DNA of 35,319 nt from Candidatus Adlerbacteria bacterium RIFCSPHIGHO2_02_FULL_54_18 (GTDB lineage: Bacteria > Patescibacteriota > Minisyncoccia > Phycocordibacterales > SBAW01): positions 1 through 35,319 of the forward strand of contig MEWV01000002.1 of the NCBI GenBank assembly GCA_001775445.1. The letters are read 5' to 3'. Under the pieces are notes generated by a model that was not told the DNA's origin, did not search any database, and saw nothing but the letters and a program-made list of their open reading frames with translations. Positions 14,238-33,730 of this stretch are shown piece by piece. Position 1 is the stretch's first letter; every line of letters starts with the position of its first letter. A program made the translations under genes and the position numbers.

Positions 14238-15665
14238 ATGGCTGAAAAGAATTTTTACGTAACGACACCTATCTTTTATCCAAATGCAAATTTGCATTTG
14301 GGGCATGCGTATGTAACGACCCTGACTGACGTTATTGCACGCTACCATCGGTTAGTAGGGGATACTACGTACTTTCTGACGGGTTCGGATGAAAACACTC
14401 AAAAAATATTGTCGGCTGCGGCAGATGCAGGAGTAACCCCACAGCAATTTTTGGACGACAAGGTTGAGGGTTTTGAGAATCTCTTTAAACAGCTCAATAT
14501 TTCGTATGACCAATTTATTCGCACGAGCGATGAAAAGGTTCATTGGCCAGGCGCAGTTGCTTTATGGAAAAAACTGGATGCGGCGGGTGACTTGTACAAA
14601 AAGCAGTACGAAGGCCTCTACTGTGTGGGCCACGAGGCGTTTATCACCGAAAAAGACCTGGTCGACGGCGCATGCCCCGATCACGGAACCGCACCTGAGC
14701 GCATACAAGAAGAGAACTATTTTTTTAAGCTCTCAAAATATACGCAGACCATTAAAACCAAAATCGAATCAGGCGAACTTTGCATTATACCGGAGTCGCG
14801 CCGGCATGAAATTCTTTCGTTGCTTGCCGAAGGATTGCAAGATGTAAGCTTCTCGCGCCCGCGTACTCCTATGTCAGTCGGAATCCCGGTGCCGGGGGAT
14901 ACTACACAGGTTATGTATGTGTGGTGCGACGCGCTCAGCAACTACATTACGGCGCTTGGTTATGGACAGGATGAGACGCTCTATAAAACATTTTGGCCCG
15001 CCAATGTGCATATTATAGGAAAAGATATTTTACGTTTTCATGCGGCTATGTGGCCCGCGATGCTTCTTTCGGCGGGGGAGCCATTGCCCAAAAGCATTCT
15101 GGTGCATGCCATGATACTCTCCGGTGGACGCAAGATGAGTAAGACGCTGGGGAACATCATCGACCCGCAAGAACTCCTGCAAGAGTACGGCACCGACGCG
15201 GTGCGCTACTTTTTGGCTCGGCACATCTCGCCATTTGAGGACGGAGACATAACTCGCGAGCACTTCAAAGACGCCTATAATGCCGATTTGGCAAACGGGC
15301 TCGGCAACCTGGTCGCCCGCATTATGCAGCTTGCACAAACTCATTTAAGCGCGCCAGTTGAACTGGAGTATAAGCCGTTTCCTAAAGAGTATACTGATGC
15401 GTTTGAACGTTTTGAAATTAATAAAGCCGCCGACCATGTGTGGGGCCGTATCCAAGCGCTCGACCAAAAAATTACCGAGATGGCGCCGTTTAAGGTAGTA
15501 AAGGAAGATGAGGAAAAAGGGAGAGGAATAATTATCGAGCTCGTCGTAGAGCTCGCCTGCATCGACCAAATGCTCGAGCCGATTATGCCGCAGACGAGCA
15601 AAAAAATAATCGACGCTATTATGACGAACAAAAAACCTGAAAATCTCTTCCCCCGCAAAGAATAA
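14238..15665 (+). CDS. metG: methionyl-tRNA synthetase (minimal form without C-terminal tRNA-binding domain)
   Basis: FYVTTPIFYPNANLHLGHAY (HIGH), WCDALSNYITALGY and KMSKTLGN. Length 475 aa. Confidence 0.94.
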   Translation: MAEKNFYVTTPIFYPNANLHLGHAYVTTLTDVIARYHRLVGDTTYFLTGSDENTQKILSAAADAGVTPQQFLDDKVEGFENLFKQLNISYDQFIRTSDEKVHWPGAVALWKKLDAAGDLYKKQYEGLYCVGHEAFITEKDLVDGACPDHGTAPERIQEENYFFKLSKYTQTIKTKIESGELCIIPESRRHEILSLLAEGLQDVSFSRPRTPMSVGIPVPGDTTQVMYVWCDALSNYITALGYGQDETLYKTFWPANVHIIGKDILRFHAAMWPAMLLSAGEPLPKSILVHAMILSGGRKMSKTLGNIIDPQELLQEYGTDAVRYFLARHISPFEDGDITREHFKDAYNADLANGLGNLVARIMQLAQTHLSAPVELEYKPFPKEYTDAFERFEINKAADHVWGRIQALDQKITEMAPFKVVKEDEEKGRGIIIELVVELACIDQMLEPIMPQTSKKIIDAIMTNKKPENLFPRKE

Positions 15666-15688
15666 GTCAGACATCCGATGTCTGACTT
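15664..15688 (+). terminator. perfect 11-bp-stem hairpin overlapping the metG stop codon
   Basis: aagtcagacat ccg atgtctgactt, with arms 15664-15674 and 15678-15688. Only a short T run follows, so its terminator function is uncertain. Confidence 0.35.
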
Positions 15689-15694
15689 TGGAGT

Positions 15695-16456
15695 ATGAAA
15701 CTTTTTGACTCGCATTGCCACCTGCAGATGCCGCAATATGATGCCGATAGGGCAGAGGTTTTGGCGCGCATGCAAGGGGCGGGGATGGGAGCTATTGTCG
15801 TGGGGACCGATTACGAGATGAGCAGGGCGGGGATTGAGCTGGCCGCCAACCACGACTTTTTGTGGGCAAGCGTCGGCTCGCACCCCAATCATGCCGAGGA
15901 GTTTGATAGTGCAAAATTTGAGGAGTTGGCAAAAGATCCAAAAGTGGTAGCAATAGGGGAGTGCGGTTTGGATTACTTTCGTTCTGAAAAGTCGGATGAA
16001 CAAAAAGAAAAATTCGTAAAACAAATTGTGCTCGCCCAAAAACTCCACAAGGCCCTTGTCGTCCATTGTCGCGACGCACACGAGGACATGTTTGACATAC
16101 TCGCCTCTGAGCAAGGTTCGACCTTGCTCAATAAAGTGCCGGTGGTTATGCACTTTTTTACCGGGTCGGCCGAGTTGGCGCAAAAGTATCTCGATTTGGG
16201 CTGCTATCTTTCGTTCCCCGGACCCATTACGTTTACGGATATGTACGATGACTCTATACGTCTCTGCCCGCTTGAAAAGATGCTTATAGAAACCGACGCT
16301 CCCTTTGCGGCACCCGTGCCGCATCGCGGCAAGCGCAACGAGCCAGTATATGTTGAGCATGTCGCGCGCAAAATCGCCGGGCTGAAGGGCTTGGGGTTGG
16401 AGGAGGTTTCCGAGCGCGCCGTAGCGAATGCACAAAAGGTCTTTAATATTGCATAA
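15695..16456 (+). CDS. tatD: TatD-family metal-dependent hydrolase
   Basis: FDSHCHL start, GECGLDY, VVHCRDA and IETDAPF motifs. Length 253 aa. Confidence 0.92.
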   Translation: MKLFDSHCHLQMPQYDADRAEVLARMQGAGMGAIVVGTDYEMSRAGIELAANHDFLWASVGSHPNHAEEFDSAKFEELAKDPKVVAIGECGLDYFRSEKSDEQKEKFVKQIVLAQKLHKALVVHCRDAHEDMFDILASEQGSTLLNKVPVVMHFFTGSAELAQKYLDLGCYLSFPGPITFTDMYDDSIRLCPLEKMLIETDAPFAAPVPHRGKRNEPVYVEHVARKIAGLKGLGLEEVSERAVANAQKVFNIA

Positions 16457-32568: not shown

Positions 32569-32991
32569 ATGGCTAAATGTAAATCAAAATATACGGTGGG
32601 TAACTATGCCTTGCGGGTAAGGCGCTCAAAAACCGGTAACGGGCTCTTTACCGAAGAGTTCATACCTAAAAGTGCATGCATTATAAAGTACACGGGTCGC
32701 CTCGTGGGTAAAGCCGAGCAATACAGTGATTCTGGTAAATATCTTTTTTGGGTTGGCAAAAATTCGATGATTAATGGCAACATCCCTTCCAATAAGGCGC
32801 GTTTCATCAACCACTCGTGCAAACCAAACTGCGAAGCGAGCGGCCCGAAGGGCCGCGTGTTCATCTCCGCCCTGCGCCGCATCAAAGCCGGGGAAGAACT
32901 AACCTACGACTATGGCGACGAATACTTCGAAAAGCACATCGCCCCCAAAGGATGCCGTTGCACCACCTGCACAATCAAGGACGGTCCTTGA
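32569..32991 (+). CDS. SET-domain protein (putative protein-lysine methyltransferase)
   Basis: 140 aa. YALRVRRSKTGNGLFTEEFIPKSACIIKYTG, RFINHSCKPNC, GEELTYDYG and a Cys cluster GCRCTTC are the SET core motifs. Confidence 0.85.
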   Translation: MAKCKSKYTVGNYALRVRRSKTGNGLFTEEFIPKSACIIKYTGRLVGKAEQYSDSGKYLFWVGKNSMINGNIPSNKARFINHSCKPNCEASGPKGRVFISALRRIKAGEELTYDYGDEYFEKHIAPKGCRCTTCTIKDGP

Positions 32992-32995
32992 TTGT
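32971..32995 (+). repeat. perfect palindrome copy 1 (REP / IS200-end-like hairpin)
   Basis: acaatcaaggac g gtccttgattgt, with 12-nt arms. It contains the last codons and the TGA stop (32989-32991) of the SET gene, and ends 16 nt before the transposase ATG. Confidence 0.9.
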
Positions 32996-33010
32996 GCTAA
33001 ACTGAGTTTA

Positions 33011-33706
33011 ATGCTCAGGGACAAGCCCTTCATAAACGGCGAAACATACCACCTCTTCAACAGAGGTGCCCATAAACAGACTATTTTTACAAACGAGGAA
33101 GACTACTGCCGTTTTTTAGTGCTTTTGTTTTTTTCAAACACTAAGGAGCGTGTCCAACTAGGAAATCTCCTGCAAAATCAAGGACGGTCCTTGATTAGTC
33201 TTTTAGGGGAGGATGTCGACCAATCCTTGGTTGATATTTTTTCCTATACTCTGATGCCTAACCATTTTCATTTGGTGATAAGGCAAAAAGCCGACGACGG
33301 TGTTTCCAAGTTTATGAGGAAGCTCGCCACAGCATACTCTATGTACTTCAATATTAAATACGACCACAGTGGAGTCTTATTTCAAGGACGTTTCAAGAGC
33401 AGGCATATAGGAAATGAAGCTTATTTTCGGTACATATTTGCTTATGTGCACTTGAATTCACTTGATTTGTTTGAACCTGGTTGGGAGGAGCAAGGATTAA
33501 AAAACCTTGATGGGGCTAGGCAATATGTAAATTCCTACCGGTACTCTAGTTTTTTTGATTATGTTGGCAATGACCGCCCCGAAAAAGCATTATTATCCTT
33601 GAGCCAAGCGCCAGAGTTTTTAACGACGCAGAATGACTTGGAAGCATTACTCCAGTCTTTCAATCAAGGACAGTCCTTGATTGTGGATGTGGATAGAAAA
33701 GGGTAA
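33011..33706 (+). CDS. Y1 HUH transposase, IS200/RAYT-like
   Basis: ORF 32912.. trimmed to the ATG at 33011 (MLRDKPFINGETYHLFNRG). HUH motif in YTLMPNHFHLVIR, then GVLFQGRFKSRHI and a Tyr-containing helix YFRYIFAYVHLNS. Confidence 0.82.
   Translation: MLRDKPFINGETYHLFNRGAHKQTIFTNEEDYCRFLVLLFFSNTKERVQLGNLLQNQGRSLISLLGEDVDQSLVDIFSYTLMPNHFHLVIRQKADDGVSKFMRKLATAYSMYFNIKYDHSGVLFQGRFKSRHIGNEAYFRYIFAYVHLNSLDLFEPGWEEQGLKNLDGARQYVNSYRYSSFFDYVGNDRPEKALLSLSQAPEFLTTQNDLEALLQSFNQGQSLIVDVDRKG
33176..33196 (+). repeat. perfect palindrome copy 2, inside the transposase ORF
   Basis: aatcaaggac g gtccttgatt. It shares the 5' flank cctgcaNaatcaagg with copy 1 and is translated as QNQGRSLIS. Confidence 0.9.
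33661..33683 (+). repeat. perfect palindrome copy 3, near the 3' end of the transposase ORF
   Basis: caatcaaggac a gtccttgattg. It is translated as NQGQSLIV, in the same frame as copy 2. Confidence 0.9.
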
Positions 33707-33730
33707 CCGTGGTGGTACAATCTGAAGAAT

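Follow-up and report, generated by a model that had tools for sequence, protein, structure and literature searches.

The window analysed is a stretch of 35,319 nt on contig C2 of the source genome (G000; 500,731 bp in 25 contigs, 93% complete, 54% GC). Close to its end lie a gene with a SET domain and, downstream of it on the same strand, a RAYT-like gene of the Y1/HUH family, together with three copies of one palindrome (Table 1). The core of this palindrome, AATCAAGGAC-N-GTCCTTGATT, was found by exact matching at 32973-32993, 33176-33196 and 33662-33682, with 0 occurrences expected by chance and 0 matches in 100 dinucleotide-preserving shuffles. Once extended, the copies are perfect palindromes with arms of 14, 10 and 11 bp, respectively, which fold as single-stranded DNA hairpins with energies of -14.2, -7.3 and -9.1 kcal/mol (z of -7.8, -4.0 and -4.4). 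The preliminary description of this DNA had placed the three copies correctly, as well as the spacings of 16 nt from copy 1 to the ATG and 21 nt from copy 3 to the stop codon, and translation confirmed that copies 2 and 3 are read in one frame. It had also reported a 5′ flank common to copies 1 and 2: CCTGCA-n does precede both cores, but it is not kept at copy 1 of the orthologous locus in the sister species G016. This flank was consequently rejected as a guide or target tag, being unconserved in G016, and its presence at both copies is probably a coincidence.

Table 1. Features of the Y1/HUH locus, in positions of the window.
Feature	Position	Strand	Remarks
SET-domain gene, upstream	32569..32991	+	Pfam SET, E 3.6e-21
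Palindrome copy 1	32969..32997		1-nt centre; at -42; ends 14 nt before the Y1 ATG
Y1/HUH RAYT-like gene	33011..33706	+	231 aa; ATG at 33011, stop codon at 33704-33706
Palindrome copy 2	33176..33196		Intragenic; translated as N56-I62 (NQGRSLI)
HUH motif, H85-F-H87	33263..33271	+	H85 and H87 invariant in 22 homologues
Predicted catalytic Y145 (AYVHLN)	33443..33445	+	Y145-x-H147-L-N149 invariant in 22 homologues
Palindrome copy 3	33661..33683		21 nt 5′ of the stop codon; NQGQSLI in the C-terminal tail

Copy 1 doubles as the 3′ end of the SET gene, to which it gives the final six codons and the TGA stop (..TIKDGP*), and copy 2 with its T-rich tail scored as terminator-like in a terminator scan, which should be taken as a hint only. 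The G+C content of the Y1 cassette is ~40%, compared with 54% for the genome. A promoter scan at the locus found none for the Y1 gene. Between copy 1 and the ATG (32996-33010), the hexamer TAAACT is followed by 7 nt, which fits a -10 box placed 6-7 nt before the start of a leaderless gene; were TAAACT such a box, copy 1 would cover the -35 to -15 region of the promoter.

The earlier assignment of the open reading frame to the Y1 transposase family was upheld by profile search, in which Pfam Y1_Tnp (PF01797) matched above its cut-off (E 6.7e-10; 39.6 bits against a cut-off of 23). Among the NCBIfam models, the RAYT model NF047646 gave the top score (39.9 bits), yet below its cut-off of 80, and the IS200 model NF033573 reached 16.3 bits against a cut-off of 55. 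Since the RAYT model scores best but stays under its threshold, the protein appears to belong to a distinct clade outside that curated model. A sequence search of the PDB gave no useful match and a fold search was needed. The AlphaFold (AF2) model built from 22 homologues (pLDDT 84.8, pTM 0.85) was matched best by Foldseek to 4er8_A, the E. coli RAYT bound to a REP hairpin (E 4.7e-7, target TM 0.67), followed by the TnpA proteins of IS608 and ISDra2. Y145 is taken here as the probable catalytic tyrosine from what is known of RAYT and IS200 motifs, and the invariance of the HUH motif and of this tyrosine suggests that catalysis has been retained. Residues 56-62, encoded by copy 2, form a loop between two short helices that is the least confident part of the modelled core, and this loop sits inside an insert between helix 29-41 and strand 74-81; to our knowledge, the insert is absent from the E. 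coli RAYT and from IS608 TnpA. The aligned homologues show almost no variation at G58 and a conserved length for the surrounding segment. The C-terminal tail carrying copy 3 is unstructured in the model (pLDDT < 50).

The palindrome is not confined to the Y1 locus. A total of 7 exact copies of the core CAAGGAC-N-GTCCTTG (14 specified bases) were found genome-wide, compared with ~0.004 expected and with 0 copies of a reversed-pattern control. The preliminary description had raised REP-like dispersal as a reading to be checked in the rest of the genome, and these 7 copies in 0.5 Mb, with more related variants in sister species, agree with it. Beyond the Y1 locus, one copy lies in trmD, two in nifS and one at the atpD/atpC junction, where it falls between the atpD stop and the atpC start and overlaps the TAA. 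The trmD copy is in frame (..INKKKSRTVLDMPKV..), and the two copies in nifS, which encodes a NifS/IscS-type cysteine desulfurase, make up a 45-nt double palindrome that is also in frame (..KYQGPSLMSDIKDGPCL..) and has one arm mismatch. Thus, 5/7 copies of the family are inside coding sequences and 2/7 overlap stop codons, in a genome that is ~92% coding by a crude ORF-based estimate. Across loci, the DNA of this family is translated in all three frames (NQGRSLI, IKDGP and SRTVLD) and on either strand. The frame giving TGA appears either as the true stop of the SET gene or, in nifS, as TGC, the change that constitutes the sole arm mismatch among the 7 copies and removes the in-frame stop; such a use of this frame is what selection against in-frame stop codons would predict. 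No shared tag resembling GTAG or CGTC was seen beside the hairpins when the flanks of the 7 copies were read by eye.

Moreover, the source genome holds nine Y1 paralogues with a mutual identity of 30-51% and no near-identical duplicate of a whole unit, and each of the nine lies between two copies of a palindrome private to it. The 5′ copy stops 11-26 nt short of the ATG and the 3′ copy is at or just past the stop codon, and 3/9 paralogues (C2, C20 and C24) have an inner copy in the same protein insert. When the genome was scanned for perfect palindromes with arms of at least 9 nt, 201 hits were obtained against 15 in a Markov control, each palindrome being counted at several loop sizes. The families comprise 3-10 copies each, and the other families are likewise found in frame in Pfam-confirmed genes, namely pnp (PNPase), uvrA, uvrB (two copies), topA (topoisomerase I), dnaG, glycosyltransferases, a reverse transcriptase and a sortase. 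Outside this genome, a flanking palindrome pair was present at 12/16 further loci of the genus and at 12/28 loci of the phylum sample. In a sample of 150 other genomes from across the phylum, 38 had the Y1 family, often as several paralogues, and no homologue was detected (E<=1e-5) in 26 of 60 other genomes of the genus. The nine paralogues are the maximum among the 61 genus and 151 phylum genomes sampled, despite the source genome being among the smallest of them. This arrangement of one gene for one repeat family is the REP/RAYT pattern known in Proteobacteria from REPtrons and REPIN-RAYT systems (PMC2817692, PMC3116915, PMC5581495).

Two further palindromes were observed in the window. At 15664-15688, the palindrome of the C14 Y1 paralogue, AAGTCAGACATC-N-GATGTCTGACTT, lies at the 3′ end of the ORF 14238-15665. 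At 16108-16130, a perfect palindrome, TGAGCAAGG-N5-CCTTGCTCA, is found in frame (..SEQGSTLLN..) in the ORF 15695-16456; the genome contains it twice more, at C8:16364 and C15:24535. None of the Y1 genes of the source genome carries this sequence, and close relatives of it flank Y1 genes in G046, G024, G018 and G044; it is either an orphan family or one whose Y1 gene falls in the unassembled 7% of the genome.

The Y1 locus was then compared with 14 orthologous loci, one per species, at 50-92% protein identity. The palindrome was present upstream in 11/14, at the inner site in 7/14 and at the stop codon in 8/14 (at about -40, +165 to +170 and the stop, respectively). Over the 14 loci, the arms vary by species and are common to all copies within one locus, around a conserved centre that reads AGGAC-N-GTCCT or AGGTC-N-GACCT. 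In particular, the inner site bears the species' own palindrome in G016, G062, G017, G010, G057 and G049, and the protein segment there, (K/Q)(K/N)Y-x-G-x-S-x, has residues that track the local palindrome (NQGRSLI, YQGRSLR, YKGQTFA, YGGRSSG, YKGQSFV). No indel was seen at this site in the protein alignment of the orthologues except for one residue missing in G000 and G016. Since the length of the segment is constant to within one residue and its residues follow the local palindrome, the inner copy is an old, maintained DNA site. The preliminary description had also suggested a hairpin inserted into, and tolerated by, the gene; this does not hold, as orthologues at 50-60% identity lack any indel beyond that residue and 7/14 have a palindrome of their own. 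Its other suggestion, an element end overlapping the coding sequence, fits the 3′ copy. In G017, G020, G057 and G069, the equivalent copy either has another reading frame or provides the stop codon (the stop of G017 being the TGA of the palindrome), and because its frame of translation differs among species it is a DNA-level feature; the C-terminal tail is a by-product of the open reading frame running into the hairpin.

The region from the SET gene through the Y1 gene to the downstream genes is syntenic in G016, and the same two downstream genes adjoin the Y1 gene in 8 species. Recent horizontal arrival, suggested by the low G+C content of the cassette, is unsupported given this synteny across species. 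The three palindromes of G016 are identical to those described here apart from the free centre base, and copy 1 is kept at 22/22 positions amid a SET 3′ end that is ~70% identical. The SET ORF of G016 ends in a TAA that overlaps the palindrome's first bases. The Y1 proteins of the two genomes share 92% amino-acid identity, with a pS of 0.44 (0.62-0.77 for the neighbouring genes) and a dN/dS of 0.06, and the gene is under strong constraint by purifying selection. Along 32973-33712, nucleotide identity to G016 rises from ~70% to ~90% exactly at copy 1 and drops ~30 nt past copy 3; this step could reflect slow evolution of the gene or an old exchange of the cassette bounded by the hairpins.

The loops of housekeeping genes showed a comparable turnover of palindromes. 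The trmD loop between VIKAVEKI and KVIITAAGG is short and free of palindromes in eight species, whereas in G045 it contains that genome's own variant of the CAAGGAC-N-GTCCTTG family, in G003 the palindrome of the source genome's C20 paralogue family, and in G021, G007, G024, G011, G043 and G001 unrelated palindromes. Repeated hits of the same kind were seen in nifS, in the loop that follows NGP, and in uvrB, in the loop that follows RPVT. All 4/4 copies in G045 have the centre GGA-GAG-TCC and all 7/7 in the source genome GGAC-N-GTCC, and since each genome's copies share their own centre, copies at orthologous sites follow the family of their own genome, either by concerted change or by repeated re-insertion. 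Furthermore, the 45 nt of palindrome in nifS add just 6 residues with respect to G016, and native loops partly resemble one arm (AAAATCAAGAAACC in trmD of G008 and CTCAATGGTCC in nifS of G016). The small gain in residues and this resemblance suggest that the copies partly overwrite native codons, a lead drawn from two or three cases.

Taken as a whole, we consider it likely that the locus is a REP/RAYT-type system, of a clade outside the curated RAYT model, and not an insertion sequence. This reading is built on the architecture of the locus, the dispersal of its palindrome, the nine parallel systems, the co-variation of copies within genomes, purifying selection on the gene and a RAYT-like fold with the HUH motif and tyrosine intact. 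In this system, the Y1 gene would encode a resident, vertically inherited, predicted HUH/Y1 single-strand DNA nuclease-ligase, with the hairpin of AATCAAGGAC-N-GTCCTTGATT as its putative cognate substrate. By analogy with E. coli TnpA-REP, the enzyme may bind and cut these hairpins on single-stranded DNA, an activity that would both spread the copies and keep them alike. Further hairpin copies would be written elsewhere in the genome and, because ~92% of it is coding, the copies expected to survive are those that are read in frame without a stop in surface loops tolerant of them (trmD, nifS) or that fall where genes meet (the SET stop and atpD/atpC). The inner copy is a maintained site and not an accident; a role in, for example, autoregulation or attenuation is a guess. 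The co-variation itself could come from selection for matching instead of enzyme-driven copying.

A different account would treat the palindromes as operator or structural sites and the Y1 proteins as domesticated, non-copying, sequence-specific DNA binders (autorepressors, nucleoid factors or replication factors), the sites being dispersed by mutation and selection. The upstream copy's location 14 nt from the ATG, as expected for a promoter or operator, agrees with this account, as do the perfect palindromes with a 1-nt centre, which suit double-strand DNA binding by a dimer, the housekeeping-like character of the gene (dN/dS and synteny) and the terminator-like score of copy 2 with its T-rich tail. 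We regard it as unlikely, however: the HUH motif and tyrosine are invariant, the in-frame copies of trmD and nifS have no obvious operator role, and a copying process is needed both for identical copies of 19-21 nt in unrelated genes and for different palindromes by species in the same trmD, nifS or uvrB loop.

An autonomous insertion sequence of the IS200/IS605 type, ~713 bp long, with copies 1 and 3 as its end hairpins and newly arrived between SET and the gene downstream, seems improbable as well. The locus does resemble that group (IS608 and ISDra2 TnpA) in its fold, its catalytic motifs, its size of ~0.7 kb with a subterminal hairpin at either end and, by analogy, single-stranded DNA chemistry as the likely mechanism, and the low G+C content of the cassette, the higher identity to G016 within it than in its flanks (~90% against ~70%, with the pS values given above) and the limits of that step near copies 1 and 3 would all be accounted for. 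The Y1 gene is also patchily distributed, being present upstream of the same downstream gene in 8/24 genomes and absent in 16/24, and in G053 the 290-aa gene directly adjoins the 201-aa gene, a Y1 gene being absent from the interval. Among such empty sites upstream of the 201-aa gene, that of G053 has no residual palindrome, and the imperfect relic seen in that of G046, AGGAC-C-GTCCT, is anecdotal. Against an insertion sequence stand the position kept beside the same downstream genes across 8 species whose proteins are 50-60% identical, the dN/dS of 0.06, the sub-threshold score of the IS200 model and the two ends, which are one perfect palindrome and not distinct imperfect LE and RE hairpins. 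Moreover, there is no second copy of the unit, the nine paralogues being only 30-51% identical. The comparison with IS200 made in the preliminary description is thus unsupported as far as mobility is concerned, the unit being single-copy per family, syntenic across species and not mobile on present evidence.

It is very unlikely that the palindromes arose de novo at each site by template switching during replication (quasi-palindrome correction), with no dedicated enzyme. Native loops partly resembling an arm (AAAATCAAGAAACC, CTCAATGGTCC) and the many unrelated palindromes in the same loops would fit such a process, but it cannot yield seven copies with the same 19-21 nt, and the one-to-one matching of families and Y1 paralogues is left unexplained. 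Lastly, the possibility that NQGxSLI is a functional peptide and its palindromic DNA incidental, to which the near-invariant G58 and the conserved segment length lend themselves, is hardly credible, since the same DNA is found outside the Y1 gene in another frame (TIKDGP*), in three frames overall and on either strand, the inner-site residues change between species exactly like the flanking non-coding copies, and the palindrome is found beyond this gene, contrary to what the preliminary description had expected of a motif at the protein level only.

With a REP/RAYT-type system as the preferred reading, the locus was set against those already known. REPs are defined as extragenic, and REP/RAYT systems are mainly described in Proteobacteria. 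The closest in structure is E. coli TnpA-REP (RayT/YafM) with its REP/BIME sequences, or 'REPtron' (PDB 4ER8; PMC3479197, PMC2817692), which is also a single-copy HUH/Y1 gene flanked by cognate hairpin palindromes that are dispersed as well; it is the top structural match, and the RAYT model is the best-scoring one. The two proteins share, however, only ~15% identity in the structural alignment, and the protein of 231 aa described here has an insert of ~30 aa between helix 1 and strand 2 and a C-terminal extension of ~80 aa. Its palindromes also differ in being perfect, with a 1-nt centre, no GTAG tag by eye and only 7 copies, which are located inside coding sequences, the enzyme's own gene included. 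The REPIN-RAYT systems of Pseudomonas (Bertels & Rainey; PMC3116915, PMC5581495) are alike in the presence of several RAYT paralogues in one genome, every one of them with its own family of repeats, in their vertical inheritance, slow evolution and absence of near-identical duplicates, and in their inverted-copy doublets, corresponding here to the 45-nt double palindrome of nifS and to the C19 doublets. In contrast, Pseudomonas REPINs are extragenic and number hundreds, and proteobacterial REPs typically have tens to hundreds of copies, whereas the 0.5 Mb studied here contain nine systems, each of 3-10 copies that mostly lie in frame within genes.

In the literature searched, no account was found of intragenic, translated REPs, nor of REP/RAYT systems in CPR, for which a single paper mentions RAYT, only as a listed KEGG hit. 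The nearest published parallel for in-frame palindromes is that of the Rickettsia palindromic elements (RPE), reportedly described by Ogata et al. in 2000, which are likewise palindromic repeats in frame in the genes of a reduced genome, translated as surface segments. However, RPE are ~100-150 bp long with no known dedicated enzyme, compared with repeats of 17-25 nt here, each tied to a Y1 gene. When the trmD, nifS and uvrB loops were compared with their orthologues, the resemblance to RPE was functional only, length and sequence being unrelated (RPE are mentioned in PMC1779305 and PMC10969869).

A 0.5-Mb CPR genome would maintain nine hairpin-plus-nuclease systems, with repeats translated in essential genes and in the nuclease genes themselves. 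It is a natural case of repeated co-variation between the specificity of an enzyme and its DNA target, which may be useful for learning how HUH enzymes read hairpins, and it offers a mechanism for the hypervariable loops of CPR housekeeping proteins; it also cautions annotators that what looks like a short 'insertion' in a CPR protein can consist of repeat DNA. A bolder version, in which the Y1 enzymes keep rewriting every copy from a master sequence, including those in their own genes and in essential genes, is possible, and we hold it tentatively and with some doubt. If it were true, 6-7 residues in host proteins, and likewise in the enzyme itself, would be set by a DNA element, a drift in specificity would change the sequence of a whole family at once, and the inner copy would be a built-in cis site (for self-targeting, autoregulation or attenuation) common to a CPR clade.

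Finally, a second class of palindromes, of even length with a GATATATC or CATATATG centre and up to 34 nt long, was found in frame or intergenic, including the trmD loops of G024, G011, G043 and G001 and the region upstream of the 201-aa gene in G004. Since this class also occurs in genomes with no detectable Y1 homologue (G011, G043 and G004), it probably depends on a different agent. In G017, the uvrB loop that contains palindromes in the source genome has instead a tandem peptide repeat (GTEVKPSE x2) and no palindrome; this loop accepts several kinds of insertion.
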